Below are positions 26,276 through 57,452 of a stretch of 64,000 nt of DNA, piece by piece. A model generated the notes under the pieces. That model was not told the origin of the DNA. It was given only the letters and a program-made list of their open reading frames with translations, and made no database searches. Origin of the DNA: an uncultured delta proteobacterium (GTDB lineage Bacteria; Desulfobacterota; Desulfobacteria; Desulfobacterales; JAFDCJ01); assembly GCA_963769935.1 (NCBI GenBank), contig CAVYNY010000013.1:448001-512000 (forward strand), written 5' to 3'. A program made the translations under genes and the position numbers. Every line of letters begins with the position of its first letter. Position 1 is the stretch's first letter.

Positions 26276-26971
26276 CTAAGCAAAGTATGTCGGTTTTAGA
26301 ACTAGCAGATCATCCGTCATTCTTTCAGCCTTTAACACAAAATCACAAAGCCCGATGTCCAGACAAAGGTCGAAATCGGTTTGCGGTGCCCAGGTTACCG
26401 CCGGGTCGAAAAAAATCCGGGCGGTCTTCGAATCTTTGAGCCGGCGGTAGATTTGATTTCTTTCCAATTTGCGATTGTTCAGCCGGCCGGCTATATATTC
26501 CGCGCAAAGCGTGTCCTCGTCGTTGGGTGTAACCGCCCAGGTCCCCATGCAGACCAGGGACACTTTAGCGGGTGACTTCTTTCTGATGTAGGTCACGATC
26601 GCCTCGGCATTGACAAAGCTGCCGGTGATCAGCTCGTCGGCATCCTTGGCATTGGCAAAGCCCTGGGTCCCCGCCGAGGTGGTCTGAATGACGGTTTTTC
26701 CTGAAAAATCGACGGCCTGAATATCTGTCGGCGAGTTGCCGTAGTCAAATCCCGGCAGCATTTTGCCCTGCCGCTCCCCCATCAGAATATAGTCCGGATT
26801 TTTCTCCTTGAGTTGGTAGGCCAGCTCGACATCACCCACCGGAATAATCCCTCCGGCACCGTTTCGCACAACATAACACGCTGTTGAAAATGCGCGAAAC
26901 ACATCGATGATGACGGTAAGACCCCTGGCCTGCCTAGCGCCCTCGATTAGCTGTAATATATCGATATTCAA
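26276..26971 (-). CDS. comB: 2-phosphosulfolactate phosphatase family protein
   Basis: IIDVFRAFST, GER, GNSP, TTSAGT and EDTLCA motifs. Confidence 0.88.
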   Translation of the reverse strand: MNIDILQLIEGARQARGLTVIIDVFRAFSTACYVVRNGAGGIIPVGDVELAYQLKEKNPDYILMGERQGKMLPGFDYGNSPTDIQAVDFSGKTVIQTTSAGTQGFANAKDADELITGSFVNAEAIVTYIRKKSPAKVSLVCMGTWAVTPNDEDTLCAEYIAGRLNNRKLERNQIYRRLKDSKTARIFFDPAVTWAPQTDFDLCLDIGLCDFVLKAERMTDDLLVLKPTYFA

Positions 26972-35848: not shown

Positions 35849-36424
35849 GTGCTGATTGACGGCAAAAGCTTCGGTGAAAAAGTAAGAGCGCTTCGCATGC
35901 AGCGCGGGCTGACCCTGACCCATCTGGCCGAAAAAACCAGCCGCTCGGTCAGTCTGCTCAGCCAGATCGAAACCGGCAATGTCAGTCCCTCTTTCAGCAG
36001 CATGCAAACCATCGCCGACGCTTTGGAAGTGTCCCTGGCGCAGATCATTTCAGCGGAAAATGCGGCCGAAGGCGGAGATTTCTACCACATCGGTGAATCT
36101 GAACGCAAAGTTCTGATCACCCAGGGGGGGGTTCAGCACCAGCTTTTATCGCGCGGCCTGCCCCTTTCGTTTGAATTCAGCTTTATTGAAGTACCCCCGG
36201 GCGCATCCACCGGTGATCCCCTGTACTCTCACGAGGGTGAAGAATGCGGCGTTCTGCTTGAAGGTGAATTGGTGCTGGAAATCGGCCTGCAGGTATACCA
36301 TTTGAAGCCGGGGGATTCGATTACCATGAAATCCTCCCTGCCGCACAAGCTGTCCAATCCCGGTAATCAAAAAGCCCGGGCTTTATGGGTTAATTCGGTA
36401 CCCTATATTTTTTCGACAAGATGA
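35849..36424 (+). CDS. XRE-family HTH regulator with C-terminal cupin
   Basis: LSQIETGNVSPS HTH and HEGEE...PH cupin motifs. Confidence 0.92.
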   Translation: MLIDGKSFGEKVRALRMQRGLTLTHLAEKTSRSVSLLSQIETGNVSPSFSSMQTIADALEVSLAQIISAENAAEGGDFYHIGESERKVLITQGGVQHQLLSRGLPLSFEFSFIEVPPGASTGDPLYSHEGEECGVLLEGELVLEIGLQVYHLKPGDSITMKSSLPHKLSNPGNQKARALWVNSVPYIFSTR

Positions 36425-36506: not shown

Positions 36507-37580
36507 GTGCGCGTGATTCCAAAATCAATGAAGGCCTGCATGCTGACAGGCGTCAACCAGTTCGCCATTCGAGAGATACCCGTCCCAACTCCCGGTCCTT
36601 CCGAAGTTCTTTGCCGGATCAAGGCCATTGCTATTTGTGGAACCGATCCCGAGATCGTCAAAGGCAAGCACCTGAACCGCAACTGGCCCCCTGAATTTCC
36701 GTTCGTATTGGGGCATGAGTGGTCGGGGGAGATCGTCAAATTAGGCGAAGGGGTCAGCGGCTTTATGGTCGGCGACCGTGTGGCCGGGGAGGCTCACAAA
36801 GGCTGCGGCCATTGCGCGAACTGTCTGAAGGGCCAATACACCCTTTGTCTCAACTATGGGAAAGGCGAAACCGGCCATCGCCACTACGGCTTCACCAATC
36901 CCGGCGCCAACTGCGAATACAACGCCTATTCCATCAAGGCCATACGAAAGATCCCGCCCTCCTTGAGCTTTCCCCATGCCGCCCTGCTGGACACTGCCGG
37001 TGTTGCGCTGCACGGCATCAAGCTGATTGGAATCACCCCGGGAGGCACCGTGGCGGTTTTCGGTCCGGGCCCGATCGGCCTGTGTGCGATGCAGATCGCT
37101 AAAGGCTTGGGTGCCAAGAATGTTGTGATGGTCGGCCGCGCACCGAGGTTGTCCGTGGCCAAAGAAATCGGCGCCAATCACGTAATCGATTTTGAAAAGG
37201 AAGATCCGGTGGCCCGCATCATGGAAATTACCCAGGGACTGGGCGCCGACGAAGTCCTGGAATGCTCCGGCGCCGCAGTGACCCCGGGGCAAAGCATCGA
37301 TTGCGTTAAAAAAGGCGGCAAAATCGATCTGATCGGATTCTACGACGACGAGCACGCAGACATTCCGTCGATCACCAAATTGGTGGTAAACGAGATCCTG
37401 ATTACCGGTTCGAGGGCGAACCCGAATGTCTCCGACGAGGTCATCCGGCTCTTCCAGGCGGGCGTGCTGAAAGGCGACAAGGTGGTCTCCCACCGGTTTC
37501 CGCTGGAAAAATACGCCGAGGGTTTCGATACCTTTGTCAACCGCAAAGACGGGGCCATCAAGGTGGTTATCGAGCCATAG
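36507..37580 (+). CDS. Zn-dependent (MDR) polyol/threonine dehydrogenase-like protein, paralog 1
   Basis: CGTD, GHEW, CGHCANC...C and GPGPIG motifs. Confidence 0.92.
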   Translation: MRVIPKSMKACMLTGVNQFAIREIPVPTPGPSEVLCRIKAIAICGTDPEIVKGKHLNRNWPPEFPFVLGHEWSGEIVKLGEGVSGFMVGDRVAGEAHKGCGHCANCLKGQYTLCLNYGKGETGHRHYGFTNPGANCEYNAYSIKAIRKIPPSLSFPHAALLDTAGVALHGIKLIGITPGGTVAVFGPGPIGLCAMQIAKGLGAKNVVMVGRAPRLSVAKEIGANHVIDFEKEDPVARIMEITQGLGADEVLECSGAAVTPGQSIDCVKKGGKIDLIGFYDDEHADIPSITKLVVNEILITGSRANPNVSDEVIRLFQAGVLKGDKVVSHRFPLEKYAEGFDTFVNRKDGAIKVVIEP

Positions 37581-37700: not shown

Positions 37701-39188
37701 ATGCTTGAATTCAAGGGCATTTCCAAAAACTTCAAAGGCGTCAAGGCCCTCAATAAAGTCTCCTTCTCCATACCCGACGGGGTTATCCACGGGATCGTCG
37801 GCGAAAACGGCGCGGGCAAGAGCACGCTGATGAAAATTTTATCCGGTGTCTACCCGCCGGACAGCGGCCGCATCGAGCTGGACGGCTCCGCCATGGTGTT
37901 CGATACCCCTGAAAAGGCCTACGATGCCGGGGTGAGAATCGTGCATCAGGAACTCAGCCTGATCCGGTCCTTAACCATTGCCCAGAACATGTTTATCCAC
38001 CGGTTTCGGCGGGCTAAGCTCAAATTTATAGATCAGAAGCTCATTGAAGCCGAAGCGGCGGAAATGCTGCGCGAATGGCAAATCGACATCCCGCCGTCAA
38101 CCCTGGTTTCCGAATTGTCCATGGGGACCCGGCAGCTGGTTGAAATCGCCCGCGAGCTGTCGACCGGCGGCCGGATCATCATCCTCGACGAACCCACCTC
38201 GTCGCTGACCTTTAAGGAGATAGACCTGTTGTTCAGCGTGCTGCGCCTGCTGCGCGGCAAGGGATATATCATCATTTTTATTTCCCACCGCCTGAATGAA
38301 GTGATCGACCTGGTCGATCGGATCACCGTCCTGAGAGACGGAGAGGTGGTGGCAACGGCCGAGACCAGGGAATTGGACACGGCTCAGATCATCAACCTGA
38401 TCGCCGGCAGGGACCTGCGCGAGTTGTTTCCCAAAACGTCGGCACCGATCGGCAGTGTGGCGATCGAGGTCAGGAATTTGAGCGGAAAGGGCTTCAAGGA
38501 CATCAGCTTCAAGGTGCACTGGGGAGAAGTTCTGGGCATCGCCGGTCTGGTCGGCTCCGGGCGCAGTGAACTGGTCCGGACCATCTACGGCGTCAACGAG
38601 TGCCGCGGGGGCGAAATCCGTCTTGAAGACACGCCGGTCCGCATCAGATCGCCCAAAGAGGCCATCCAGATGGGAATCAGCCTGCTCAGTGAAGACCGGG
38701 AAGCCGAGGGGATGTTTCCGGATCTGAGCGTCTCAAAGAACCTGATCATACTAAAGATAAGGGAAGTACTGAAGAATTATTTCCTCAGCAAAAGCAAGAT
38801 CGAAGCCAAGGCCGCCCGCCTCGTCCACGAACTCAACATTGTGACCTACGATCAGGAGAAGCAGATCGTATCGGAGCTCTCCGGCGGCAACAAACAGAAG
38901 GTGATTTTGGGAAGACTGACAGGCTCGAAACCCAAAATCCTGCTTCTCGACGAACCGACCCGGGGGGTGGACATCGCCAACAAAACGGAAATTCACAAGA
39001 TCATGGGCCGGTTTTTGAATCAGGGGGGCGCCGTCGTGATGGTGTCCTCGGAGTTGAACGAATTGATCGGCGTCAGCGACAGGATCCTGGTTCTGAATGA
39101 AGGGGAATTCGGAGCCATCTATGAGCGCAACGAATTTGAGAAAGAGGAAATACTGCGATGTATGATGAAAGTGTGCCTGGCCGCCTAG
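37701..39188 (+). CDS. Sugar ABC transporter ATP-binding protein (RbsA/CUT2)
   Basis: GENGAGKST, LDEPT, LSGGNKQKV and DEPTRGVD motifs. Confidence 0.95.
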   Translation: MLEFKGISKNFKGVKALNKVSFSIPDGVIHGIVGENGAGKSTLMKILSGVYPPDSGRIELDGSAMVFDTPEKAYDAGVRIVHQELSLIRSLTIAQNMFIHRFRRAKLKFIDQKLIEAEAAEMLREWQIDIPPSTLVSELSMGTRQLVEIARELSTGGRIIILDEPTSSLTFKEIDLLFSVLRLLRGKGYIIIFISHRLNEVIDLVDRITVLRDGEVVATAETRELDTAQIINLIAGRDLRELFPKTSAPIGSVAIEVRNLSGKGFKDISFKVHWGEVLGIAGLVGSGRSELVRTIYGVNECRGGEIRLEDTPVRIRSPKEAIQMGISLLSEDREAEGMFPDLSVSKNLIILKIREVLKNYFLSKSKIEAKAARLVHELNIVTYDQEKQIVSELSGGNKQKVILGRLTGSKPKILLLDEPTRGVDIANKTEIHKIMGRFLNQGGAVVMVSSELNELIGVSDRILVLNEGEFGAIYERNEFEKEEILRCMMKVCLAA

Positions 39189-40147
39189 CATCCAAAAACA
39201 TATTGGGAGTATCGCTCAATTTCAACAACGTGCAGCGCCTGTTCCTGCTCTCGGCCCTCGTGGTGGTGATCATCAGCATGACGCTGCTGAATCCCCGATT
39301 CCTGTCGTGGGGGAACATCATCAACATCAACCGCCAGATGTCGATCAACCTGATCATAGCCGTGGCAATGACCTACTGCATCATCTCCGGCGGGTTTGAT
39401 CTGTCGGTCGGATCGGTCGGGGCAATGGCCGGCTGTCTGACGGGCATCATCCTGGCATCGACCGGCAACATCCCGCTCGCCATCGCCGCTGGGCTTGCTT
39501 CCGGCGGGATCGTGGGGATCGCCAACGGGTTCGTCATCGCCAAACTGAAGGTCCCGCCCTTTGTGGCTACCTTGGGGACCATGTCGGTGGCGCGCGGCGT
39601 GGCCCTGCTGGTCACCGGCGGGATCATTATCAGCGGCTTCCCGGACAGTTTCAACTTCATCGGAACCGGATTTATATTCGGCATTCCGGTGCCGGTCATC
39701 ATCATGGTAATCGTTGTGGCCATCGGGCATATCGTCCTGTCCAAGACGGAATTCGGGCTGAACGTCTATGCTCTCGGCGGCAATTTCAAGGCATCCCGCC
39801 TGGCTGGGCTTGAAAACGACAAGATGATCATGAAGATTTACACCCTGAGCGGGCTGCTGTCCGCCATGGCCGGAATCATTCTCACGGCGCGCGTCATCTC
39901 AGCCCAGCCCGGGTTGATGGAAACGACGAACCTGGACGTGATTGCGGCCGTCGTCGTAGGCGGTTCATCGCTGGCCGGGGGCAAGGGGTCCATCGGCAAC
40001 ACGATCCTGGGCTCGGTTTTGATGGCGGCCCTGTTCAACGGCTTGAACATCATCGGTATCGGTTACGAATGGCAGCTGGTCGTAATCGGAATCATCGTCA
40101 TCATGGCGGTGGCCCTTGATATGATCTCCAGAAAAAACGAAATTTAA
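39158..40147 (+). CDS. Sugar ABC transporter permease (RbsC-like)
   Basis: GGFDLSVGS, PPFVATLG and IAAVVVGGSSLAGG motifs. The start is uncertain. Confidence 0.93.
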   Translation: MYDESVPGRLASKNILGVSLNFNNVQRLFLLSALVVVIISMTLLNPRFLSWGNIININRQMSINLIIAVAMTYCIISGGFDLSVGSVGAMAGCLTGIILASTGNIPLAIAAGLASGGIVGIANGFVIAKLKVPPFVATLGTMSVARGVALLVTGGIIISGFPDSFNFIGTGFIFGIPVPVIIMVIVVAIGHIVLSKTEFGLNVYALGGNFKASRLAGLENDKMIMKIYTLSGLLSAMAGIILTARVISAQPGLMETTNLDVIAAVVVGGSSLAGGKGSIGNTILGSVLMAALFNGLNIIGIGYEWQLVVIGIIVIMAVALDMISRKNEI

Positions 40148-40277
40148 CCGGTAACAATCTTGGATCCCGATGGATGGTCATCGAGACCAGCGAAAGGATA
40201 TAGTGGCGTGCAGCGGATCGTGGACCCGTTGCCTAATCATATCCAAATAACCCAATCCAATCTTGAAGGAGGAAAAA

Positions 40278-41273
40278 ATGCGTAGATTAAATCTGATGGT
40301 ACTGATCGGCTTGATTGCATTCGCAGTTATCGTATCCATGTCGGCCATGCCGGCTCAGGCCCAGAAAAAAAATGTCGTCATCGGTTCCAGTATGGTTCAA
40401 AAAGACAGCGACTGGTGGGCGGTGATGGGCAAGTTCGTGGAGCAGGCGGCTGAAGCGGAGGGTTTCGAGGTCATCACCCTGTGGGCCGGAGGTGACCAGG
40501 AGAAGCAGATCAAGGATATGGAGGATCTGATCCAGCGCAAGGTCAATGCGATTGTTATGGGCCCGGTGCAGCAGGACGGCAGCATGGTCGCCATTAATGA
40601 GGCCGCCAAAGCCGGGATCCCCGTTATCACGGTGGGCCGCCGGTCGAAGACGGACAAACAGTATGCCGAGGTGTGGGCAAATGAGCCCCAGTTCGGGGTC
40701 GAGCAGGTGACCCAGATCGCCAAGGATTTCCCCAAAGGAGGCAACATAGTCTATTTGTTCGGCCCGGTGGGCGCCGGTTATGCCATCCAGATGTGGGACC
40801 AGGGCGTCGTTCCGACCATGAAGAAACATCCGAACCTTAAAATTCTCCAGAAGTACAGCTCCCCGAGCGACATCGCCTCGGACGGCATGAAGAACGCCGA
40901 AGACGCTATTGTCCGGTACGACAACATCGACATCATCGCCTGCAGCAACGACGGGTTGGCGCTGGGTGCGGTGCGGGCCGTTCAGGCCGCCGGCAAGGCG
41001 GGCAAGATCACCGTCTATGGCGCCGGGGCCACGGAAATGGGTATGCAGGCCATCGCTGACGGCGAGATGCGCTACACGACGATCAAGAGCCAGGCGAAAA
41101 TGGCGCAGATAGCCATGCAAAAAGTGGTGATGGCCATAAACGGCAAGCCGGTCGGCGAAAAGATCAACCTGGTGGCACCGATTGTCGTCACCAAGGAAAA
41201 TGTCCTCACCGTCAGGGACGCGATGTTCGGTGGCACAGTAACCGACCCGGGAACTTTCAAACCCAAAAAGTAG
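40278..41273 (+). CDS. Sugar ABC transporter substrate-binding protein (RbsB-like)
   Basis: Signal peptide (AQA|Q) and Peripla_BP_4 motifs (NDGLALGA); GGAGG RBS. Confidence 0.92.
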   Translation: MRRLNLMVLIGLIAFAVIVSMSAMPAQAQKKNVVIGSSMVQKDSDWWAVMGKFVEQAAEAEGFEVITLWAGGDQEKQIKDMEDLIQRKVNAIVMGPVQQDGSMVAINEAAKAGIPVITVGRRSKTDKQYAEVWANEPQFGVEQVTQIAKDFPKGGNIVYLFGPVGAGYAIQMWDQGVVPTMKKHPNLKILQKYSSPSDIASDGMKNAEDAIVRYDNIDIIACSNDGLALGAVRAVQAAGKAGKITVYGAGATEMGMQAIADGEMRYTTIKSQAKMAQIAMQKVVMAINGKPVGEKINLVAPIVVTKENVLTVRDAMFGGTVTDPGTFKPKK

Positions 41274-41329: not shown

Positions 41330-41549
41330 GGAACGCGGAAATAAACGGCAGGCCTTCCTAAATGCCGGGGGCCAGGCCTGCCGGATTTATACATCGTCAT
41401 TGTTCCAGCCGTCGGCGATAGGCGCTGAATGCGGACGCCGTCACGCCGATCGGCCATGCGAAACCACATAAAAGCAATCGCGTGCACCGACGCGCTGTTT
41501 GGATTGTGCGGCAGCAATGCGGTTGCGCTATTTTCGGAGGATGCAAACC

Positions 41550-41945
41550 ATGGGAAAGTCACCTGCAACCAATGCGGACATGCGAAGCACGGTATTCGAT
41601 TATGAATGGAAGGAAGTCGGCGAGGAACGCGGCGGACCCATCCCGGGCATCAAAGAAAAACTGCTGGCGGTCGATCCTGAAACCGGGGCGTATACACGAA
41701 TCGTGATATTCGAACCCGGCTTCAAGTTCAAGAAGGCCTTGCAGCATCCTTTCTGGGAGGAGCTGTTCATGCTGGAAGGCCACCTGATTGATTACGGCAC
41801 CAACACGGTTTACACCAAGGGTTTCTATGCCCTCAGGCCTGCGGGCGTAGTTCATGGACCTTTTGGGACGGACCTGGGATGCACGCTGCTTGAAACGGCC
41901 TGGTACAGCAAGGATTGGTATCTGGAAAAATATAGCCAACCATAA
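41550..41945 (+). CDS. ChrR-like cupin protein
   Basis: HPFWEELFMLEG and RPAGVVHGPF motifs. Confidence 0.85.
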   Translation: MGKSPATNADMRSTVFDYEWKEVGEERGGPIPGIKEKLLAVDPETGAYTRIVIFEPGFKFKKALQHPFWEELFMLEGHLIDYGTNTVYTKGFYALRPAGVVHGPFGTDLGCTLLETAWYSKDWYLEKYSQP

Positions 41946-42032: not shown

Positions 42033-42386
42033 ATGAAGGTTTATCGAAAAGGCACGGGGGAAAAATACACGCCGTTCAACCATTTTGATATGACAACCCA
42101 GGTCATATTCAATCCGGATACCGGCTGCCCCAAGGTGAACGCCACCCTCACGACACTGAAAAAAGGTTCCGGCAGTAATGATGAAATCCACGAGACCTCG
42201 GATCAGCTTTTGTTTATGATTCAGGGCGCTATGAATGTCTATGCTCACGGCAACCTGCTTGAAACACTGAACACTGGCGATGCCTTGCTGATAAACGCCG
42301 GAGACACCCACGCTGTGAAAAATGAGAAGGACACGGATGCCGTCTTTCTTGCGATAACGGTGCCCCCGCTCGATAAAACGCACTGA
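42033..42386 (+). CDS. Cupin domain protein
   Basis: EIHETSDQ...GD...THAVKN motifs. Confidence 0.85.
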   Translation: MKVYRKGTGEKYTPFNHFDMTTQVIFNPDTGCPKVNATLTTLKKGSGSNDEIHETSDQLLFMIQGAMNVYAHGNLLETLNTGDALLINAGDTHAVKNEKDTDAVFLAITVPPLDKTH

Positions 42387-42447
42387 CATTCCGATCAACC
42401 CGGGAATCCGGGTGAACCAGCAGTACCCCGCGGAGGAGGAAAACGTG

Positions 42448-43536
42448 ATGAGTGAACAGCTGCCAGAAACTATGAACGCGTTGGTCTTAAACGCTCCGGG
42501 AAAGTTTGACATTCAGACGGTGCCGGTGCCCGCACCGGGCCCCTTTGAAGTGCTCTGCCGAATTCGCGCCGTGGCGATCTGCGGCACCGATCCCGAGGTG
42601 ATTGCAGGCGGGTTCCCCGGCTATTGGCCGCCGGCCTACCCCTTTATTCCCGGACATGAATGGGCGGGCGAGATCGTGGCGATCGGCGAGCATGCGCTGG
42701 GATTCCAGGTCGGCGACCGGGTGGCCGGCGAGGCCTGGAAGGGATGCGGCCATTGTTACCGCTGCATCGCGGGGCATTACAACCTATGCGAGAACTACGG
42801 ACGCCCGGATTCCGGGATGCGGCATTATGGTTTCCAAGCCAGCGGCGCCTATGCCCAGTACAATGTCTACTCCATCAAGAGCATTCACCAAATGCAGCCC
42901 CAGGTGTCGTTTCAGGAAGGCGCCCTGGTGGACACCGCGGGGGTCGGGATGCACGGCGTCGAATTGGCCGGAGTCACCCCCGGCGGCGTGGTCGCGGTGA
43001 TCGGTCCCGGTCCGATAGGGATCCTCACCATGCGCACGGCGCGGATCATGGGGGCGAGCAAGGTCATCATGGTCGGCCGGCGCTCCCGCCTGGAAGCCGC
43101 CGGGAGGCTGGGTGCCGACTGCCTGGTGGATTTCGAGAAAGAGGAGCCCGTTGCGGCCGTGCGGGCAGCCGCAGGCGGCCGCCCGGTCGACGAGGTCTTC
43201 GAGTGCTCGGGAGCCGAGGGCACCTTCCGGCAGGCGGTCATGATGGTCAGGGAAGGCGGACGGGTAGCTCTTTTGGGGGTCCCGCCGGCTACGGCCATGG
43301 AGCCGCTGCCCTTCAGGCACATCTGCCGCAACGAAATAGCCATCTTCGGCGTCAAAGCCAATCCGAACGTCAGTGCGAAAACACTGGCATTGATCGCTTC
43401 GGGTCAGCTGGCCGTGAAGGACTTGATCACCCATGTGTTCCCTCTGCAGGAGTTCGGGAATGCGCTGGATACATTCGTCAATCGGCGCGAGGGAGCGGTC
43501 AAGGTCGTTATCGAACCCAATGGACCTGAATCCTGA
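42448..43536 (+). CDS. Zn-dependent (MDR) dehydrogenase, paralog 2
   Basis: Same motifs as 36507..37580; GGAGGAGG RBS before ATG 42448. Confidence 0.92.
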   Translation: MSEQLPETMNALVLNAPGKFDIQTVPVPAPGPFEVLCRIRAVAICGTDPEVIAGGFPGYWPPAYPFIPGHEWAGEIVAIGEHALGFQVGDRVAGEAWKGCGHCYRCIAGHYNLCENYGRPDSGMRHYGFQASGAYAQYNVYSIKSIHQMQPQVSFQEGALVDTAGVGMHGVELAGVTPGGVVAVIGPGPIGILTMRTARIMGASKVIMVGRRSRLEAAGRLGADCLVDFEKEEPVAAVRAAAGGRPVDEVFECSGAEGTFRQAVMMVREGGRVALLGVPPATAMEPLPFRHICRNEIAIFGVKANPNVSAKTLALIASGQLAVKDLITHVFPLQEFGNALDTFVNRREGAVKVVIEPNGPES

Positions 43537-43712
43537 CCCAACCTGCAGCGACGACCCAGCGTGCCTGCGACTGCTTCCAACCCGGGACGCTGATCCGGAC
43601 ATTTCACGGGTGGAGGTGGCGGCAGCCGCAAGGCGTCGGATTATGATGCTTTACCTAAGGTAGGTTGAATGAATTTTATTTTTATGACATGGGCGGGCTA
43701 AGGAGAGCCACG

Positions 43713-44468
43713 ATGATCAACTACACCATTCGGCAGATCCAGACCGGCTGGCAATTTCTGGACAAGGGATTGTACGGCACCTACGGAAAGGGGTATGGCG
43801 AAATCATCGAACACCCCGTGTTCTGCTTCCTGATCGAAGGGGGGGGGCGCAAAATACTCGTTGACACGGGCATGAGCGACACGGAACACTCCAAAAAATA
43901 CCATCACGAAGGCAGGCAGGACCCCGGCCAGGCGATCCACGAGCAGCTTGCCCGGCTCGGGGTCGGCGTCGATGAAATCGAGATCATCATCTTCACGCAT
44001 CTGCACTGGGATCACTGTTACAATGTAAAGAAGTTCCCCCGGGCGCGGCTTTTTGCGAGCGAGATCGAATATCGCTTTGCACTGGACCCCATCCCGTTCT
44101 ATTGGAATTCATACGAAGCGCCGGCCCTCGGAATCGGATGCCCCTTTGACGGTTGCCATTTCAACCTCATCCAGGGGGAGGAGGAAATCGTCGAAGGAAT
44201 CCGCGCCTACCCTACCCCCGGACACAGTCCCGGTCACATGGCCGTATCCGTGCAGACTTTAAATGGGGTGTACTCGCTCATCGGAGACTTGATCCTGCTG
44301 CGGGAGTCGTTGCAGCCCAACACGGAGAAGGGATGGCCTCTGACGCCGCCGGGCCGGTTCTACAACATCGTCGAAGTCTGGCACAGCATGGAGGAGGTCA
44401 TCCGGCGTTCCGATCATATCCTCATGACGCATGATCCCGGGCAACTGAAGCAGGAAATATACCCATGA
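43713..44468 (+). CDS. Metallo-beta-lactamase fold, N-acyl homoserine lactonase-like family
   Basis: VDTG, THLHWDH, TPGHSPGH, GD and HD motifs. Confidence 0.9.
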   Translation: MINYTIRQIQTGWQFLDKGLYGTYGKGYGEIIEHPVFCFLIEGGGRKILVDTGMSDTEHSKKYHHEGRQDPGQAIHEQLARLGVGVDEIEIIIFTHLHWDHCYNVKKFPRARLFASEIEYRFALDPIPFYWNSYEAPALGIGCPFDGCHFNLIQGEEEIVEGIRAYPTPGHSPGHMAVSVQTLNGVYSLIGDLILLRESLQPNTEKGWPLTPPGRFYNIVEVWHSMEEVIRRSDHILMTHDPGQLKQEIYP

Positions 44469-45103
44469 CAGCAACAGGTCGCCGGGGGCAAGGCTCCCGG
44501 CAGAACACAGCGACCCGACGCGTCAAAGACGAGCTGGTGCGATCCGCCCGGCGCGCTTACGAAATCGGCCTTCAGACAGGAGACGGCGGCAACTTGAGCG
44601 GCCGGGTGGCCGGTACGGATCTGGTTGTCATCAAAGCGAGCGGGGTTTCCTTCGGCGAATGCAGGCCGGACAACCTGGTGACCGTCAACCTCCAGGGCGA
44701 AATCGTCCACGGCGAAGCGAAGCCTTCGCGGGAGCTTTTCACTCATCTGGCGGTCTACACGGCGCGGCCGGAGATCCTGGGAATTTGCCACTGTCACGGC
44801 CCCTGGTCCATTGCCTGTGCCGAATTCCATTCCCAGATCCGCTGCATCAGCCTGCATGCCGGATCCAAAATCGGACCGATCCCGGTTCTGAAAGTCGCAG
44901 GACAAGGCGACCTGAAGGTCAAGAAGGCCGTTGAAGCCCTGCTGGCAAAATATCCGGGCTTGAAGGCATTCGTGCAGGCCCGGCACGGGATTTTCGCCAT
45001 GGCGGAATCCGTTACCCGGGCGGAGCACCATGCGGAATTGGTCGAGGAAACGGCGCAGATCGCCTGGCTGGTGGCCATGCGCAAGCTGCCGCGGGTTTCC
45101 TGA
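44465..45103 (+). CDS. Class II aldolase/adducin family protein
   Basis: GGNLS, PSRE, H, HCH and RHG metal motifs. Confidence 0.9.
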   Translation: MTATGRRGQGSRQNTATRRVKDELVRSARRAYEIGLQTGDGGNLSGRVAGTDLVVIKASGVSFGECRPDNLVTVNLQGEIVHGEAKPSRELFTHLAVYTARPEILGICHCHGPWSIACAEFHSQIRCISLHAGSKIGPIPVLKVAGQGDLKVKKAVEALLAKYPGLKAFVQARHGIFAMAESVTRAEHHAELVEETAQIAWLVAMRKLPRVS

Positions 45104-45117
45104 GGAGCTTTTTTTCG

Positions 45118-46398
45118 ATGCCGAAACAAATCGTATTGCTCGGAACGCTAGACACCAAGGGACCGGAGATCCAATTCGCCAAACAGCTGGTTGAACGCCG
45201 GGGGCACGTCGCGGTCGTAATCGATTGCGGCATTATGGGAGAGCCGTATTTCGCTGCGGCGGTCTCGAGACAGGAAGTCGCCGGCGCCGCCGGGACCACC
45301 CTCACGGAAATCATCGCCCGGGGCGACAAGAATGCCGCTATCCGGACGATGACGGCCGGATCAACAGCCATTGTCAAGCGGCTTCACGCAGCCGGCCGGA
45401 TGGATGGAATTCTCGCCCTGGGCGGCGGTCAGGGTACCGTGATGGGAACCGCGGTAATGCAGGCCCTGCCCTTCGGAGTGCCCAAGGTCATGCTGTCGGC
45501 CGTCGCCAACGGCCAGACCGCGTTCGGTCCTTTCGTCGGAACCCGGGACATCACGATCATCCACTCGGTAGCCGACGTCCTGGGGCTGAACATCATCACC
45601 CGGCGAGTCCTGGCTGAAGCGGTGGGCGCCATAACCGGTATGGTTGAGATAGATTTCGATGAACCCGGTTCGGGCCGCCCCGCCATCGCCATGACGACTG
45701 CGGGCGTCACGACGCTCTGTGCCATGCGCGCCCGGGATGTCCTGGATTCCAGGGGCTACGAAGTGATCGCCTTCCATTGCAACGGCATCGGCGCCCAGGC
45801 CATGGAAGAATTGGCCGAAGCCGGGCTGCTCGCCGGCATCCTGGACATCAGCCCGCATGACATCACGGATTATCTCTTCGGGGGCATCTTCCCGGCCTTC
45901 CGGAACCGGATGGAGGCAACCTGCCGGCTGGGGATTCCCCAGGTGGTTGTACCGGGAACCACCGATTTCATTCTGTATGCCGGGATTGACTCCGTGCCGC
46001 CCGAAATGTTGCAGCGCAAATACGTCATCCACAATCCGATCCATACCCACGTGCGCACCAACCATGAGGAAATGGCGGCGGTCGGACGCTTTATCGCCGA
46101 ACGGCTGATCCGCAGCACCGGACCGGCGGAGGTGATCATCCCCAAACGGGGTTTCACGGCGCTCAACACGGCCGGCGGTCCGATGTACGACCCGCAATCG
46201 GACAGCGGTTTTGCGGAGGGCCTTTTAGAGACCCTCGGGCAAGGCGGTGCGCATAAGGTCCGCGTGGAGGAAATCGACCGGCATATCAACGACCCCGAGT
46301 TTGCCGAAGCCCTCGCCCTAAGGATCGATACACTGGTCACGCAGGCGAACCCTTTGCATACACGGAATATACAGGAGCATCATGAACCCCGCCGATAA
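45118..46398 (+). CDS. Tm-1-like ATP-binding domain protein (UPF0261), copy 1
   Basis: GTLDTKGPE, LPFGVPK, SVADVLGLN, FHCNGIG and HINDPEFA motifs. Confidence 0.9.
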   Translation: MPKQIVLLGTLDTKGPEIQFAKQLVERRGHVAVVIDCGIMGEPYFAAAVSRQEVAGAAGTTLTEIIARGDKNAAIRTMTAGSTAIVKRLHAAGRMDGILALGGGQGTVMGTAVMQALPFGVPKVMLSAVANGQTAFGPFVGTRDITIIHSVADVLGLNIITRRVLAEAVGAITGMVEIDFDEPGSGRPAIAMTTAGVTTLCAMRARDVLDSRGYEVIAFHCNGIGAQAMEELAEAGLLAGILDISPHDITDYLFGGIFPAFRNRMEATCRLGIPQVVVPGTTDFILYAGIDSVPPEMLQRKYVIHNPIHTHVRTNHEEMAAVGRFIAERLIRSTGPAEVIIPKRGFTALNTAGGPMYDPQSDSGFAEGLLETLGQGGAHKVRVEEIDRHINDPEFAEALALRIDTLVTQANPLHTRNIQEHHEPRR

Positions 46399-47676
46399 AT
46401 CGGGCTTTTTTGCGGATCGCGCGCGCCTGGACATGGCGCGCTATCTGGTTTTCGACTATCGCTTCGAAACGGCGATTGCGCCCGAGGAAGCCGCCGCGCA
46501 CCTGTGCCAGGAACAATCCACCGCGCAATGGAAGCGGGTCGGGGTGCAGGAGGACCTGCGGGAGCGTTTCGGTGCCAAAGTCATCGATCTGCAGATTGAG
46601 CGCCGGCAGGAGGCCCCCTCATTTCCTTCGGCCGCGCTCGCAGAAGGAGCGGTTGATGTCTGCCGGGTCAAAATCGCCCATCCGCACGGAAATTTCGGCC
46701 CCAAACTGCCGAACATTCTGACGGCCGCCTGCGGCGAGGGCGCTTTTTTTTCGCCGGGGATTTCGGCCATCAAGCTGCTGGACATCGAGTTCCCCGACGC
46801 GTTTCTGGAGAATTTCCAGGGGCCTCAATTCGGGGTCGAGGGTCTGCGCCGCATGCTGCAGGTCTATGATCGACCGCTTTTTTTCGGCGTGATCAAGCCC
46901 AACATCGGCCTGCCGCCGGAGCCGTTTGCCGAGCTCGCCTATCAGGCCTGGCTGGGGGGGTTGGATATCGCCAAAGACGATGAAATGCTGTGCGATGTCG
47001 ACTGGTCGCCGTTACGCAAGAGGGCCCGATTGTTGGGCGCGGCGCGCTTGAAAAGTGAGAAAGAAACCGGAGAAAAGAAAATATACCTGGCGAATATCAC
47101 CGATGAAGTCGACCGGCTGATTGAATTGCACGACATTGCCGTGGCGGCCGGAGCCAATGCCGTGATGGTCAACGGCATGACAACCGGGTTAAGTGCGGTG
47201 CGCATGTTGCGCAAGCATGCCCGGGTACCGCTGGTGGGACATTTCGACTTTATCGCGCCGTTCACTCAAATTCCTTTTTACGGCGTGCATTCAAAATTGG
47301 TCACCAAGCTGCAGCGGCTGGTGGGTTTTGATGCCATTATCATGCCGGGTTTCGGAAACAGGATGAAAACCCCGCAGGATGAAGTATTGGAAAATGTGCA
47401 GGAATGCTTCAAACCCATGGGCCATATCAAAGACACCCTGCCGGTTCCGGCCGGCAGCCAATGGGCCGGCTCCACGGTAAAATTATATCAGCAGCCTGGG
47501 TACGATTGATTTCGGGATTGTGCCGGGCAGGGGTGTTTTCGGCCATCCCATGGGACCCCGAAGGCGGCGCCGCCAGTCTGAGACAGGGTTGGGAATCGGT
47601 TCAAAAGAGTATGACCCTTGAAGAATACGCCAAGGATCATCCGGAGTTAAAGGCGGCGATTGAGGCGTTTTCGTGA
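46382..47676 (+). CDS. rlp: RuBisCO-like protein (form IV RLP, IV-Photo-like); two +1 frameshifts near the 3' end as sequenced
   Basis: [13 protein letters not shown] and [10 protein letters not shown] motifs. Removing one base at about 47495 and one at about 47557 restores [32 protein letters not shown]...HPEL. Confidence 0.92.
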
Positions 47677-47736: not shown

Positions 47737-48968
47737 TTACTTTGCTTCACCCATCACCTCCAACAATTGCTCAAAGGCGACAGTGGCAAATTCGTCATCG
47801 TTGATGTGAGCTTCTACCTCGATGATGGGGATGTCCCGCCGCAGGTTTTTTTTCAATTCCTTCAAAAACACCGGATTACCATCAGGATTCCACAAAGCCA
47901 GACCTTTCTTGTCCTGAGAGCAGAATCCCTGCGCCGGATAACAGGAATTTAACCTTGCCTTTCGCCTTGTTTAATTTTTCAGCAAAAGTTGCAGCGATGA
48001 TTTTCAATTCTTCCACGGTTGTATTTATAAGGGTAATATTCGGATTGTGGTAGTATTTTTGGCGATCATCATATTTTGACTGCAAAGCGTCTTCGCTGCT
48101 CAATACGATGATGTTGGCCGCTCCGGGTGTCACCACGGTCGGGACGCCCATTTCCAGTGCGGCTTCCATTCTGCCGGGCTTGGCGACATGCAGGCCCCCA
48201 AAATTATTGGCAACCAATTCGTTGGTTGAAAAGTCCAGCACACCGGCAAAATATTTTTCAGGGACCAAGGTGTCCATGCAATCACCGCCGGTGCCGTTGG
48301 CATGGAAGGTCAAAACTTCATAGCCGCGTTTTTCGAGCTCAGGTTTTATAACGCTCATGATGGGCTTGGTGGTTGTGCCCAGCATGCTGATGGCGATACT
48401 TTTAGGTTTTTTATCGGATGCCTCCGGTTTTACTTTAACCATTCCCACAATGGCACCCACCGCATTGTTGAAAACTCTTCTGCTGATCGAATTTATACCC
48501 AGGATATCGATAACGGAATGCATGACGGTGGCATCATTGTATCCGATGAGATCACTAAACAGGTGTTTGCCGGAAGCAATCGTGGAAACGGCGATCTTGG
48601 GTACGCCCAGCGGTAAGGCATCCATGGCCGCACGCGCTAATACGGACCCTTCCGCACCGCCGATGGCAATCAGACCCTGGATAGTTCCTTCTTCATAAAG
48701 CTTCTTCACATAAGTCTGTAGGCAATCCCGCATTCTTTCTATTGCGGCCCCCCTGGAGCCGGCATTCGACAAGCTCCTGGATGGTTTTACCTGAATACTC
48801 GACAACCTGGTCGCGGGTAACCTCAGGCTCCAGAAAGACCGGTTTGCCAAGGATGCCCGAATCAACCACCAGAGCGTTGACATGGCAGGATTCTATGCGC
48901 TGCTTCAAGTAGAGTGCTTCTTCTCCTTTGGTATCGCAGGTTGCGATGATTGCAATTGTGTCAGACAT
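47737..48968 (-). pseudogene. Tm-1-like (UPF0261) protein, copy 2; frameshifted as sequenced, possibly intact
   Basis: ATCDTKGEE, LPLGVPK, FHANGTGG and HINDDEFA are spread over three frames, with shifts at about 48765 and 47940. Confidence 0.85.
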
Positions 48969-49039
48969 AGCATGAATCCTCAATGTCCAATCAGATACTC
49001 AATTCCGGACGAACTATTTCGAAATAGGGATACGAACCG

Positions 49040-49765
49040 TTATTCAAATGCGCTAAAATGCCTAAAATTAAATTGACTAAAATAATTCGATGCGCTTAAA
49101 GCGCTAACTCTCGTATTCTTCCAGTTCGGCCAGAAGGTCGTTGAAAAATTCTCGGCGGATCTGATTCCGCCCCTCCGGGCCGCGAATTCTTTGCCGGTCT
49201 TGGTATAAAACGTCAAATTTTTGAAACCGGCCCGCCACTTGACGATGGCATACAGATTTTTATAATCCTGATGGCCCGCCAAACCGCGCTGTCCGAACTC
49301 CACATAAGTCCTCACAACCTGAAGGATACCGATTTTCCCTATCTTTTCCAGCAAATCGGCATCATGGACGACCTTGGCTTCCAGACTGGGCGGCTCGACT
49401 TCAAAACCGGGCATGGCTCCCTTATGGCTCAGGATGCAGTCGGCAATCTTTTTCCTTTCGGCCGCACTCCAATCACCCAGACGGTCCACGCACTTCTCGG
49501 CGCCGATGCGGTGATGGACCGCCGGATCCGGATTATACAAAAAGCCGATATCATGCAGCAGAATCGCCGGCAGTACGATCTGCATGTCGGCCCCCTCGGC
49601 TTCGCCGATCCGGACGGCATTGATCGTGTCCCGGTAGATATGGTCCCAGTTATGAGCGACGAAATCACGGCTCTCAAAGGCGGTTTTGACGCTGTCGTGG
49701 ATCATCTTTATCCGCTTGTCTGCAAGGTATCCCTCAAGTTGCGTGCGTGCCGACATTTCAAACAT
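49040..49765 (-). CDS. HD-domain phosphohydrolase; probable frameshift near the C-terminus
   Basis: HNWDH, LLHDIG, HH, SH and DADLLE motifs. Confidence 0.8.
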   Translation of the reverse strand: MFEMSARTQLEGYLADKRIKMIHDSVKTAFESRDFVAHNWDHIYRDTINAVRIGEAEGADMQIVLPAILLHDIGFLYNPDPAVHHRIGAEKCVDRLGDWSAAERKKIADCILSHKGAMPGFEVEPPSLEAKVVHDADLLEKIGKIGILQVVRTYVEFGQRGLAGHQDYKNLYAIVKWRAGFKNLTFYTKTGKEFAARRGGIRSAENFSTTFWPNWKNTRVSALSASNYFSQFNFRHFSAFE

Positions 49766-49773
49766 CTCCGGAC

Positions 49774-50891
49774 TTAAAGACCTGCCGCCTCTGCAACCAG
49801 ATCCACCAGATTGACTACCTTGATATTATTTATACTCCGGGCAGTCATTGTTTTTTTGAAGGTTTCATCACAGCGCGGACAACCCGAAACCAAAAGGGCA
49901 GCTCCGGTCTCTCTGGCTTCATCGATTCTCAACGCGGCGATTGCTTCTGACACATCTGATCGATGAACCGCCAACATCCCCCTGCCCCGCAACAATTGGC
50001 CCATTGTTTATGAGTCGCCATCTCTTTGAACTCATCATCCAGGATTTTTGAAAGAATAAACCGGGGCGAATCCACATCCTCAAAAAATCTCGCCAGGACG
50101 CAGGGATCGTGATAGGTGGCACCATCAGTAACCTTGCTGATCACAGGTATCTGATTATTCTTCAACCAGTCTGCCATCAGAGCATTGATATGCAGGATCT
50201 TTATTCCCTTAATGTCACCGCCGAATCGTAGATGTTCTTCCCATCAGCATCCTGTAGCTGCGGCCATCCAGAGCGACAACCGTCGAAACTTGGCTGTCTC
50301 TGATCTTTTCTGCAACCAGGCTGATAATTGTTTGGCGCCTTCAAAGTCTCCCAGTTGATATAGCGCCCAACCACTGGCGGGTTCATCCGCAAGTACTTTA
50401 AATGATTTACCGGCCTGATTGAAGAGTTTGCCGGCGGCGATCAGCGTTGGTATTTGAGAATCCCTTGCCGCTCTGCCGCAAAACAGCAGTGTGTCGGCAT
50501 CGGAATCGAGCGCAATCCGGCATGCGGTCAATATCCTTTGCGGATTTTCCCCCTGTACCGGATTCTGGCGCAGACCTTTGGTGTAGGCGATGACTTCATC
50601 CGGTGCCAGGCCCTTTTCAAAGAGACGGGCTCTGGTATCAATCACGAGTTCTTCGTGATCGTAATTACCCACACACCATTGCTGCAGCATGCGGTCATTG
50701 AGGGTGGTATACATGATATCCGCCACATCCTCATCATATCCAAGCAGTCCGTTATCTAAGGCAGATATGATGGCCCCCCGGCCGCGTGGCGTATAGGATT
50801 CTCTGCGTACGACCTGGCCTACCCGGTCGGCACAATGACACATCATGCAAAAACGGCAGGCCCAGATGGTTTCCGTCTCTTTCCTTTTCAC
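49774..50891 (-). pseudogene. (Fe-S)-binding CCG-domain protein (GlpC/HdrD-like); frameshifted as sequenced
   Basis: CRFCMMCHC, PRG, YHDPCVLAR, CCGAGG and SGCPRC are spread over several frames. Confidence 0.82.
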
Positions 50892-51068
50892 TCAAAAACA
50901 TCGCTGTTACCTTTTAAATTAAACGTTCTAATTTACGAATCTACCCGATTGGGATCATTTGTCCAAATTCATTGGAATATGCTTCGAAATCGATATTCGA
51001 AATTCGAATTTTGCCTTGCTCAGCCTTCAGCAGGATTCGGCCTCCCCAAATATGGATAAGATCATCGG

Positions 51069-52514
51069 TTACTTTCGCCTTATAAAACCCAGTTTGCCCG
51101 GATTCATAATTCCGGCCGGATCCAGTGCATCTTTAATTCTTTGCATCGTCGGCCAGGCCGGCCCATACTGTTCTTCCATCAACCAGCCCAGTTTAAAACC
51201 GATCCCATGATGATCGTTCAATACGCCGCCATGTTCAAGGGAAGCACGCGCCGCTTTGCCCCAGATCTCGGTATGCAGCTGCAAGGCTTCATGCGGATCC
51301 TGGGGTGGCTTGGCGATCAGGAAACGATCATAAACCATCACGCCCCACGGAAACCAGTGCGAGAAGTGTGCCATGTAGTCCGTACCCCACTCCTTGAATT
51401 CTTCGGTGATGACCCGTTGCTTGGCTTTGAATATATTGTAGATCTTATCGTAAGTTGCGGTGGTTTCCACAGTCCCGAACATTTCCGGCAGCATCAGACT
51501 GTGGGGTGGGAAATAGAAATCATAGCGATGCTTCCACCAGTGTTCACCGGGTTCCGGCCCCAATTGTTTCCCGTTCAGCTTCGGTACAGATCTCATGGAT
51601 GAGCTGAATTTCAAGATCCACAAACCGCCGGTCACCATCCGATCCTAGCACCATGAAGGCGCCTTTCATATCCAGATCAAGTACCCGTTTTACAACCCGT
51701 TCGCTGGAGCTGGAATCATAAAGCCGAATGACACAAGGATGCAGACGCTGGGTCATGATCCGCCGCCCGGCCTCAAGGCCCTGCCGGACATCTTCAAAAA
51801 TATAGGAGTTAAATCTGCGAACCTCGGGTATTGGATCCAGACGCATGGTAACTTCGGTAATGGTCCCCAGGGTGCCCTCCGAACCGACGAACAACTGCAA
51901 CAGTCCCGGACCGCAGGCATGGTTGGGTACCGGCAGGGTTCGGATTATTTCGCCGGACGCCAGCACAACCTCCATGCTCACGACCATGTCTTCGGCTTTG
52001 CCGTACTTTGGTCGACAAAGTCCCGGATCCCCGGGCGGCAACATACCCGCCCAGGGTCGCCCCGTATTCGGAAGCCGGATAATGGGCCAGGGTGAAACCC
52101 TTTTTGTTCAGGGCCCATTCAAGATGCTGGCCGTTGATTCCCGGTTGGGCGGTAACCGTCAGCGACGCCTCATCGATTTTGACAATCCGGTCCATCTTTT
52201 TCAGATCGAGAATGATGCCGCCGTAAAGCGGAACCACACCGCCTTGGCTGCCGGTGCCGCCGCCGTAAGGAATAACCGGGATCCCGTGCCGGGTGGCCAG
52301 TTTATGAATGCGGGCAACCTCTGCGGCCGATTCCGGGAACACGATAAAATCCGGCTTTTCCAGCGTCTGCCGCCGATCGAATCCACATCTGCGGGACCAG
52401 ATAAAAATCCATGCTGTAGGCCAGACGTTCGGCTTCACGTACGGTGACATCTTCGTATCCGACAATATCCAGCAATTCATTTTTGATGATACCTAACAAC
52501 AGATTTTCGGACAT
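51069..52514 (-). pseudogene. FAD-binding oxidoreductase (VAO/GlcD/alkyl-DHAP synthase-like); frameshifted as sequenced
   Basis: PYGGGTGSQGG, HYPAS, ATLGG, GSEGTLG, HFSH, DHHGIG and DPAGIMNPGK are spread over several frames. Confidence 0.85.
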
Positions 52515-52556
52515 CCACCGACCTTTCTAAAATCGTTTGACTAATTGGTTGCTGCT

Positions 52557-53420
52557 GTTCAACCCTGTCTTTCCATTCGCGATTGGTGACTTCAATTTTA
52601 ACCTTTTCAAGTTCTGCGAGCGCCCGCGCCAGATGCGCTGCAAAGCGTTTTAAGGCTTCTTCGCCTTTTTCCTTTGTGCCCCGCAAAGGATTGCCAATAA
52701 GTCCGGTATCGGAGAACTCCCGGTGTTCCATCGGAAATACGAAATAATTATAGCCTTCAAATTCCACACTGGGGGTACCGTCTTTTTTCAGGAAAGATTC
52801 CGGCAAATAAGGCGGGGTGCTGGTTCTTTCACTTTTTACCGCGCGATCCATCCGGGCCAATTTTTCATCGTGCGCCAGAACCTGGGCGGTCTCCAGCTCT
52901 CCGGCATGCCACCCGGTGTTTCTTCCGGCGGACCTTCCAGGATGTCGGCGATCATGCCGAAATAGTTTTCCGCATAGGGTTTATATACGCACACCAGGGC
53001 GTTGGTATCGTACTTTGATTTTCCTCAGCAAGGGATCGATAATTTTCATGTTGGAGGCATGGCCCGGTAACAAATACAATCTTGTTGAACCCATGGTGGA
53101 TCAAGGAGCGGGCCACGTCATAGTAAAGATTTCTGAAAGTCTCGGCCCGCACGGTGATGGTGCCCAGTCCCAATCCGGGGGGGCCCATATGATGTGGGCT
53201 GTAGCCGATCCATGATTCCGGTGTATACAGCACCTCGGCCTGCACTGGCGGCCCGGTAGGTAACTTCTCTGGCGGTAATCATGTCGGTAAACAGCGGACA
53301 ATGGTAGGAATGCTGTTCCAGACTGGCAATGGGTACCATGATAATATCCTTTTTCTTGAGATAATCCTGGATATCGACATAGGTTAAATTGCCGATGTTA
53401 TATTTGTAATCTGTCTGCAT
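52557..53420 (-). pseudogene. Creatininase-family hydrolase; frameshifted as sequenced
   Basis: SLEQHSYHCPLFTD, GYSPHH, GTIT, GH, HAGELET and GNP...EKG motifs. Confidence 0.85.
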
Positions 53421-53624
53421 TTTGTCTCCCCTTCCTGGCCCCTGATTGAGTGGCGAATACAGAATCGGCCGTTTATAGTTAATTTTAAAAAAAATCAGAG
53501 AATAGGCTCGTTTAAAAACTGCAAGATCATCGGCAGGACAATTTGTACCTGAAAACAACCTTAAAGAAAATGCCTCCCGACAGTCAAGGAAAAAATCAAA
53601 TTTTCACAATATTTTTTAATAATT

Positions 53625-56780: not shown

Positions 56781-57452
56781 CTATCCGAATCTCAGCTTGC
56801 GCATGTCTGCAAAATAATCGATGGCGGACGGCGGCAGCTTCTGAATTTGTTCGCCGGTTGCCAGCGCGTGATAATAAATCTGAGAAACATTTTCCAGCAG
56901 TTCCGCATTTTTCATGGCACGCTTCATGTCGGCACCCAGACATAAGGCACCATGATTTTGAATGAGGTAGCAGTGGCAGGCGTTGCCCAGTTTGCCGACG
57001 ACATTGTCGACCAGCTCTGAACTGCCCGAAAACGCATAGGGCACGATCGCCACCTCGTGGCCGATTTCAACGGTGACCTCATCAAACAGCGCCGGAATCG
57101 GCTTATTGATGATCGCCAAAACGCTGGCAAACGGCTGATGCGTGTGAATGACCGCATTAACATCCGGCCGATTTTTGTAGACCCCGATGTGCATTCCGGC
57201 CTCGATGGAAGGCGGCAGGCTGCCTTCGATGGAATTTCGTTCCAAATCTATAACGCAGATATCGTTTTGATTCAGCGAGGAGTAAGACCGCCCCGCAGGC
57301 GTTATGGCGACGATTTTCTCACCCGGGACCCTTACCGAAATGTTCCCGCCGCTGCTCAACTTACCCAGATACCCATGCTCGGCCAACCAGTGGCTGCTGT
57401 CTGACACTTCACGTCTGATTCTGTCGTAATTGCGCACGTCCTCAAACCTCAC
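56781..57452 (-). CDS. Class II aldolase/adducin family protein (FucA-like)
   Basis: GGNIS, ITP, PSIE, H, HTH and NHG motifs. Confidence 0.9.
   Translation of the reverse strand: MRFEDVRNYDRIRREVSDSSHWLAEHGYLGKLSSGGNISVRVPGEKIVAITPAGRSYSSLNQNDICVIDLERNSIEGSLPPSIEAGMHIGVYKNRPDVNAVIHTHQPFASVLAIINKPIPALFDEVTVEIGHEVAIVPYAFSGSSELVDNVVGKLGNACHCYLIQNHGALCLGADMKRAMKNAELLENVSQIYYHALATGEQIQKLPPSAIDYFADMRKLRFG

Follow-up and report, generated by a model that had tools for sequence, protein, structure and literature searches.

What does a RuBisCO-like protein (RLP) of the Chlorobium type do in a bacterium that apparently does not photosynthesize? The question is raised by a form IV RLP gene in a 64,000-nucleotide stretch of DNA (hereafter, the window; positions 448,001 to 512,000 of contig CAVYNY010000013.1, assembly GCA_963769935.1) from an uncultured member of the Desulfobacterales. 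A preliminary description, made from the letters alone, had likened the protein nearly motif for motif to the Chlorobaculum tepidum RLP. The motifs that it quoted are all present, and the likeness is borne out by the best matches among solved structures: Rhodopseudomonas palustris RLP2 (2QYG, 526 bits) and the C. tepidum RLP (1TEL and 1YKW, 514 and 513 bits), with the next match at 142 bits. RLP structures of this phototroph group (IV-Photo) date from 2004-2005. According to the accessible text of PMC5893883, the function of R. palustris RLP2 was open in 2018, and the protein was inactive on methylthioribulose 1-phosphate. Our analysis indicates that the window protein likely represents a new subfamily beside the known IV-Photo proteins and gives this long-unexplained family a testable reaction.

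Both domains of the RuBisCO fold are recognizable (PF00016 and PF02788 score over or near their cut-offs), and a fold search agrees. The protein falls into no form IV clade whose function is known: when its 375-aa open reading frame (ORF) was scored against six NCBIfam models for RLPs and RuBisCO, all remained far below cut-off. OiaX came out on top (193 against 700), and the remaining scores and cut-offs (MtnW (YkrW), form III RuBisCO) were 171/409, 140/514 and 182/497. Among 80 genome loci, 26 are of a non-phototroph type (L016-L040 and L049), and the other 54 group with those of Chlorobi and purple bacteria; the 54 were grouped by clade and include uncultured members whose phototrophy was unchecked, and one is Thiosymbion. 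In three quick trees without bootstraps, made from subsets of 99, 70 and 59 rows, the phototroph-type clade had a support of 99-100 and the window-type protein stood outside it every time. When near outgroups were used (36-55% identity), with P0002 (97% identical) standing in for the window RLP, phototroph and non-phototroph clades were sisters with a support of 90; for the core, from which L020 and L032 are left out, it was 98. A phototroph clade nested within anaerobe sequences had come from trees with distant outgroups, and was discarded when near outgroups gave the sister clade instead; anaerobe monophyly was not rejected in an approximately unbiased (AU) test (p 0.35). The near-outgroup tree thus favours one option of the preliminary description, a sister subfamily, and on these sequence comparisons membership in a non-phototroph sister clade is favoured over IV-Photo proper. 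IV-Photo-related RLPs have already been reported in non-phototrophs (Parcubacteria and Micrarchaeota, in the accessible text of PMC6389311), and RLPs serve as an outgroup in a 2026 paper (PMC13454268, accessible part). A literature search that reached few subscription papers found no published account of this clade or of the five-gene module described below.

The two clades are also told apart by four residues near the active site. At position 267, P is found in 54/54 phototroph-type sequences and T in 32 of the 33 others; the corresponding figures are 54/54 P versus 28/33 D at position 289, 54/54 G versus 31/33 A at position 357, and 54/54 D versus 31/33 Q at position 360. The window RLP carries T267, D289, A357 and Q360. 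Two loop differences given in the preliminary description, GHFDF for GHFPF and PAGSQWA for PGGSDSA, were reproduced by alignment. As markers, however, they fared unequally: A357 and Q360 are diagnostic, but W361 is found in both groups (many phototroph sequences read PGGSDWA), and T267, which is diagnostic, had been missed.

The host appears to be non-phototrophic, as had been supposed. Its genome (96.7% complete, 5.4% contaminated) gave no match to type II reaction centres, PsaA/B or soxB, and only weak hits to bchX; a dsrA above cut-off, with dsrD adjoining it, is present in this sulfate reducer. The RLP is the single RuBisCO-family gene found in this genome. LsrF and a YjbQ homologue are encoded elsewhere in the genome, not at the RLP. 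Close RLP homologues are patchily distributed: 3 of 22 genomes of the genus have one, whereas none turned up in 38 further genomes of the order or in 400 taken from the phylum. The RLP of one same-genus genome is identical to that in a record classed as Desulfobacterales.

Active-site positions were mapped by alignment to form III RuBisCO 2CWX and are compared with RuBisCO residue numbers. The equivalents of E60, K175, K201, D203, E204 and H294 are E44, K172, K198, D200, E201 and H287, and they are invariant in 120/120 homologues, as are R327 and R383. These and other homologue statistics rest on the best 120 of 1471 homologues, 70-100% identical to the RLP; the few named members among them belong to Desulfobacterales, Anaerolineae and the Olavius Delta 1 symbiont. 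RuBisCO residues R295, H298, H327 and K334 are replaced by F288, I291, I320 and R327, and the position of K177 is occupied by N174. Metal and base residues are therefore kept, while residues for carboxylation are replaced and the second phosphate site is lost. The F/I/I/R replacements fit a short monophosphate that would be enolised and not carboxylated; the protein is predicted to be non-carboxylating, and is likely an Mg/carbamate-dependent enediolate isomerase. The fold is close to that of IV-Photo proteins (1TEL, 1YKW, 2QYG): a model of P0002 with a predicted local distance difference test (pLDDT) score of 90.8 gave a template modelling (TM) score of 0.96 to 1TEL, at about 60% identity. 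The same substitutions are found in IV-Photo proteins at the positions of RuBisCO T65, N123, K177, R295, H327, K334 and G404, whereas positions 267, 289, 357 and 360 read P, P, G and D.

Gene neighbourhoods also separate the clades. When 160 loci and the window were sorted with RLP residues as the sole criterion, and then dereplicated at 95%, 126 clusters were obtained, three of which fit no residue group. Among the 45 clusters of the D289/A357/Q360 type, a lactonase-like hydrolase is found in 27, RpiB in 25, a UPF0261 protein in 25 (15 of them at at least 50% identity) and a class II aldolase-family protein in 19; all four partners are present in 11 clusters and none in nine, six of which span under 6 kb. 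None of the four partners occurs in the 63 P267 (Photo-type) clusters, where YjbQ (39) and LsrF (18) are found instead. The module made of the RLP and its four partners recurs in Desulfobacterota, Chloroflexota and Spirochaetota. In Chloroflexota, all three extended clusters have orthologues of the aldolase (53-55%) and of UPF0261 (59-60%) closing a divergent hydrolase operon, 12-15 kb from an RpiB-RLP fusion. RpiB and RLP form one fusion protein in 6 of the 120 homologues and at seven Chloroflexota loci, and RpiB lies directly adjacent in L021, L034, L035, L040 and L049; fusion and adjacency argue that the two proteins catalyze consecutive steps. Among 23 genomes of the genus, hydrolase and aldolase orthologues exist in G000 and G012 only, beside the RLP in both. 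Loci differ in the type of transporter and in the dehydrogenases that they carry. That the catabolic context might be informative had been proposed before; it is indeed conserved, but it speaks first for the sister group. Since the neighbours of phototroph members differ (YjbQ, or LsrF with short-chain dehydrogenases/reductases (SDRs)), what it tells about the C. tepidum protein is the class of reaction and not the substrate. Together, the sister clade and its conserved module restrict the candidate chemistry to that of a short ketose monophosphate; they also point to catabolism of a sugar derivative in an uncultured Desulfobacterales lineage.

One might argue that the window RLP performs the same reaction as its phototroph relatives, possibly on a 5-deoxy-pentulose phosphate derived from radical-SAM waste, and that the operon is incidental. 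The identity and the TM score given above would agree, A357 is the only canonical active-site position that departs from C. tepidum, and L020 and L032 pair D289 with YjbQ. However, YjbQ occurs in 0/45 D289/AQ clusters against 39/63 Photo clusters, the four near-site residues differ almost without exception, and the host has dxs. We consider this explanation improbable. A role in bypassing Dxs was also rejected, given the dxs gene of the host. In L020 (7035-11299) and L032, whose D289 RLPs are intermediate between the clades, YjbQ comes immediately after ispA, and L020 has also xseA upstream.

The RpiB proteins linked to the RLP are of a distinctive kind. All 27 carry Ser-Asn at the site of the His-Asn of 3HE8, and the first His is missing in all 25 with a visible N-terminus, as in 5IFZ, which we take to be an enzyme of the erythritol pathway. 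Loss of both histidines presumably marks isomerases of acyclic tetrose phosphates (DerI). When three close plasmid RpiBs were inspected, a DhaK-family kinase was found beside all three and a triosephosphate isomerase (TIM) paralogue beside two. At RLP loci, neither a LerI-like TIM paralogue nor a DhaK-type kinase was found, except one TIM in L019 (P289 type); EryC was not searched for. A single TIM is present in four of the six RLP genomes checked.

Ribulose 1,5-bisphosphate and D-erythrulose 1-phosphate share the same C1-C3 arrangement. According to the accessible text of PMC10733421, D-erythrulose 1-phosphate (3R) is a product of FucA and RhaD, and FucA-type aldolases may equally cleave it; EryC and LerI have to act on it before D-erythrulose 4-phosphate is reached, and DerI acts afterwards. 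RLP1, in turn, moves the carbonyl of a ketose 1-phosphate (PMC5893883, accessible text). Combining these three elements, we tentatively propose, with somewhat less than even confidence, that the RLP acts on D-erythrulose 1-phosphate and, by a carbonyl shift, gives D-erythrulose 4-phosphate. The four partner enzymes and the RLP likely form a route, as yet a prediction, from a small sugar derivative to erythrose 4-phosphate. After its import, a small sugar acid or lactone would be opened by the lactonase-like hydrolase, and a variable dehydrogenase would oxidise it; UPF0261 would phosphorylate the opened compound next to its carbonyl; and the aldolase-family protein would release CO2 or an aldehyde to give D-erythrulose 1-phosphate. 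The RLP would then take the C3 proton and reprotonate C2, a single step replacing EryC plus LerI, and DerI would convert D-erythrulose 4-phosphate into erythrose 4-phosphate.

Known systems resemble this scheme in part. Like RLP1 of the IV-DeepYkr clade (methylthioribulose 1-phosphate 1,3-isomerase of Rhodospirillum rubrum and R. palustris), the window RLP would carry out an enediolate carbonyl shift on a ketose 1-phosphate (accessible texts of PMC5893883 and PMC10176493); however, it belongs to another clade, and its proposed substrate has four carbons and no sulfur. MtnP and MtnA were not seen among the annotated neighbours of RLP loci. [quoted passage not shown] The single known UPF0261 activity is that of the kinase MarK (PMC12624787 in its accessible part; structure 9MPY). 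The upstream UPF0261 protein belongs to the same family (219 bits to 9MPY) and keeps its D-T-K ATP motif (D12 T13 K14), as well as H220 and H305 at the positions of MarK H219 and H304, but the H348 position is not kept; moreover, MarK acts on phenols next to a carboxylase, whereas a sugar-type substrate is proposed here.

If the scheme is true, the RuBisCO superfamily would gain a new reaction and UPF0261 a sugar-type substrate, and two enzymes could be dropped from the EuMP design; a deoxy analogue would also be suggested as a candidate for the phototroph RLPs. A published Escherichia coli selection that scores erythrose 4-phosphate supply makes the model cheaply testable. The accessible text of PMC10733421 also proposes to seek natural co-occurrence of EuMP enzymes. 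Aldolase, RLP and DerI might constitute such a natural module, leading from dihydroxyacetone phosphate (DHAP) and formaldehyde to D-erythrulose 1-phosphate, D-erythrulose 4-phosphate and erythrose 4-phosphate, an extension that we regard as very improbable. Were it true, a RuBisCO relative would take part in one-carbon assimilation, or its reverse, in anaerobes, and UPF0261 would be a new family of sugar kinases.

Another possibility is that the RLP catalyzes a C-C cleaving step, as OiaX/OiaT do in D-apiose catabolism: it would decarboxylate a five-carbon 3-oxo acid phosphate to an erythrulose phosphate for DerI, with hydrolase and kinase making its substrate, for instance from an ascorbate-like enediol lactone. 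In D-apiose catabolism, as would be the case here, an RLP works with a kinase and feeds erythrulose phosphates. The five-gene core has no conserved dehydrogenase, as in the ascorbate route, and ascorbate genes (ulaG, D, E and F, with an FGGY kinase) adjoin the module in the Desulfobacterota loci L035, L040 and L133; the invariant R327 and R383 could bind a carboxylate; OiaX is the top NCBIfam match; and RLPs that decarboxylate 3-oxo-isoapionate 4-phosphate are known (PMC6302742, accessible text). However, the OiaX score lies far below its cut-off, identity to the DUF1537-linked RLPs is about 35%, and the kinase here is UPF0261, not DUF1537. In addition, no ApnO-like, OiaC-like or OiaK-type gene is found at core loci, this reading would leave no role for the class II aldolase-family protein, which could plausibly be a decarboxylase itself, and ula genes adjoin just 3 of 49 D289 loci. 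We consider this alternative rather doubtful. The apionate pathway was also tried as a candidate and rejected, with no ApnO-, OiaC-, LerI- or LerK-like gene at RLP loci; we presume these names for Pantoea genes whose records give family names only.

A further reading has the RLP act as an epimerase or isomerase on a pentulose or hexulose 1-phosphate, which the adjacent aldolase would then cleave to DHAP and an aldehyde, DerI being a loosely linked extra. It agrees with the window, L111, L113, L123 and L126, where aldolase and UPF0261 are present and RpiB is absent from the DNA examined; with the best PDB match of the window aldolase, 6BTD, titled as a fuculose phosphate aldolase, which scores 77 bits only; and with LsrF near L016, which yields DHAP too. 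The fusion of RpiB to the RLP in Chloroflexota, and its adjacency in five other loci, are difficult to reconcile with a loose link, and we hold this reading to be unlikely.

Several observations weigh against D-erythrulose 1-phosphate isomerisation, the reaction that we prefer. The kinase or the aldolase-family protein could supply D-erythrulose 4-phosphate instead, and the contact of D289 with the terminal hydroxyl of the substrate is putative. The loci are kin, so that the link between residues and context amounts to two or three independent transitions and is no statistical test. L038 and L170 combine D289 with neighbours of the four-carbon-acid kinase type; in L016 (82%), the closest relative with a name, an SDR and LsrF lie near the RLP, hydrolase and aldolase are absent, and a search of its genome gave no RpiB match. 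Four linked RpiBs tested against the NCBIfam DerI model NF051858 scored 125-197 bits, under the cut-off of 240, and two of them scored the generic RpiB model first; a Pantoea RpiB from a DhaK/TIM cluster also reached just 179 bits. In the window no RpiB lies beside the RLP: the DerI-type gene of the host sits on C20, beside DhaK/L, and is not specific support because such genes are common in the genus (16/23). UPF0261 is likewise expanded in the genus (17 of 23 genomes), so only the close orthologue counts and distant copies are partly background. G005 has a partial UPF0261 orthologue on a contig without RLP. Finally, the UPF0261 substrates known from the accessible text of PMC12624787 are phenols only.

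Two interruptions in the RLP reading frame had to be explained. The ORF 46382-47509 encodes 375 aa, and the last 60 codons are spread over two other frames, up to a stop at 47676. Both frameshifts cut the last phosphate-binding loop off the annotated ORF, and might therefore be read as decay of a pseudogene. We find this most improbable: both inserted bases are missing from contigs of two of four sequencing runs, from two studies (at these sites the remaining two runs had no coverage, and the contigs, 91-96% alike to the window, are from relatives, the same strain not being shown), and from the same-genus genome G008. Intact 430-aa homologues with 93-97% identity are on record, the catalytic residues are intact, and the facing UPF0261 gene is similarly broken. 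On these grounds the frameshifts are most likely assembly errors, and their repair, which had been advised, gives a protein that continues to 47676. The gene is real, probably intact, and of an undescribed sister subfamily of IV-Photo. Longer RLP fusions (754-2150 aa) did not turn up, which is weak evidence, viral contigs with this RLP were not found, and ESM Atlas matches gave generic family names only.

The RLP closes an operon that begins with an XRE regulator and continues with a dehydrogenase, a sugar ABC transporter, two cupins, a second dehydrogenase, the lactonase-like hydrolase, the class II aldolase-family gene and UPF0261. A promoter and terminator scan gave signal at chance level. 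One RNA run yielded contigs 90-99% alike over parts of the operon, hence from relatives; as it gave neither strand nor level, it was not used.

Table 1. Features of the RLP operon and of the convergent gene (window coordinates; AHL, acyl-homoserine lactone).
Feature	Position	Strand	Remarks
XRE-cupin regulator	35849..36424	+	68% orthologue heads the same genes in L114
Zinc alcohol dehydrogenase 1	36507..37580	+	51% identity with dehydrogenase 2
Monosaccharide-type ABC transporter (ATPase, permease, and binding protein at 40263-41273)	37701..41273	+	
Two cupin genes	41499-41945, 42033-42386	+	Orthologues in L126/L127 only
Zinc alcohol dehydrogenase 2	42412..43536	+	Variable part of the cluster
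Metallo-beta-lactamase-fold hydrolase, AHL-lactonase family	43665..44468	+	Likely start 43710
Class II aldolase-family protein (aldolase or decarboxylase)	44465..45103	+	E90, H109, H111 and H174 kept in orthologues
UPF0261 (Tm-1/MarK family) protein, predicted kinase	45118..46398	+	17-nt overlap with RLP start
Form IV RLP, favoured as sister subfamily of IV-Photo, D289 type	46382..47676	+	About 430 aa, two +1 indels
Extra base, frameshift 1	47493	+	Not in relatives' contigs
Extra base, frameshift 2	47563	+	Not in relatives' contigs
Second UPF0261 gene, convergent with RLP, three frames	47746..49013	-	82% orthologue downstream of RLP in L111

The operon is faced by another one (47746-53558, minus strand) with creatininase-like, GlcD-like FAD oxidase, probable Fe-S protein, HD hydrolase and second UPF0261 genes, most of them frameshifted. 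An inositol route (IolM/IolN) was considered and discarded, as the creatininase-like pieces at 52477-53558 match a generic model only. A GlcD-like gene lies directly 3' of the RLP in L123 and L126/L127. The window also contains a ComB-like phosphatase gene (26276-26971, minus strand), a type that recurs near UPF0261 genes in L022, L105, L114, L118, L125, L128 and L140, and a second class II aldolase-family gene (56781-57452, minus strand), not orthologous to the operon copy.

The 15 clusters of the P289/A357 type (subgroup L017, L018, L019, L029 and L105-L121) show a different pattern: FMN reductase in 12, a phosphoenolpyruvate (PEP)-hydrolase-like gene in nine and UPF0261 in six, with hydrolase, aldolase and RpiB absent from all 15. 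Two or three PEP-hydrolase-like genes and the FMN reductase lie upstream, and nitroreductase, UPF0261 and ComB genes often downstream. This subgroup probably performs a different reaction. In L017, the RLP is on a 3.6-kb contig of a bin titled Methanoregula, and groups with Desulfobacterota sequences.

Other RLP types and UPF0261 arrangements were also detected. In L170 (2-9642), PdxA2 and a TRAP transporter precede a D289 RLP, opposite which lie a DUF1537 kinase and another, distant RLP, so that one four-carbon-acid cluster combines two RLP classes. In loci L007-L014, from several genomes of the genus, an OiaK-like kinase accompanies a second type of RLP, for which MtnW is the best model, though below cut-off. 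Close to the contig end, L202 (G000, C16:378000-392208) contains two LsrF-type thiolase copies together with cysteine-rich Fe-S genes and a zinc dehydrogenase, and the same block is found upstream of the RLP in G008. On the same contig, L201 (6247-8379) encodes a 711-aa fusion of an ABC ATPase with a full UPF0261 protein, and a PEP-hydrolase-like gene comes next. Judging by the open frames of 704-761 codons that G013, G015 and G018 have at this family, the fusion seems to be conserved.

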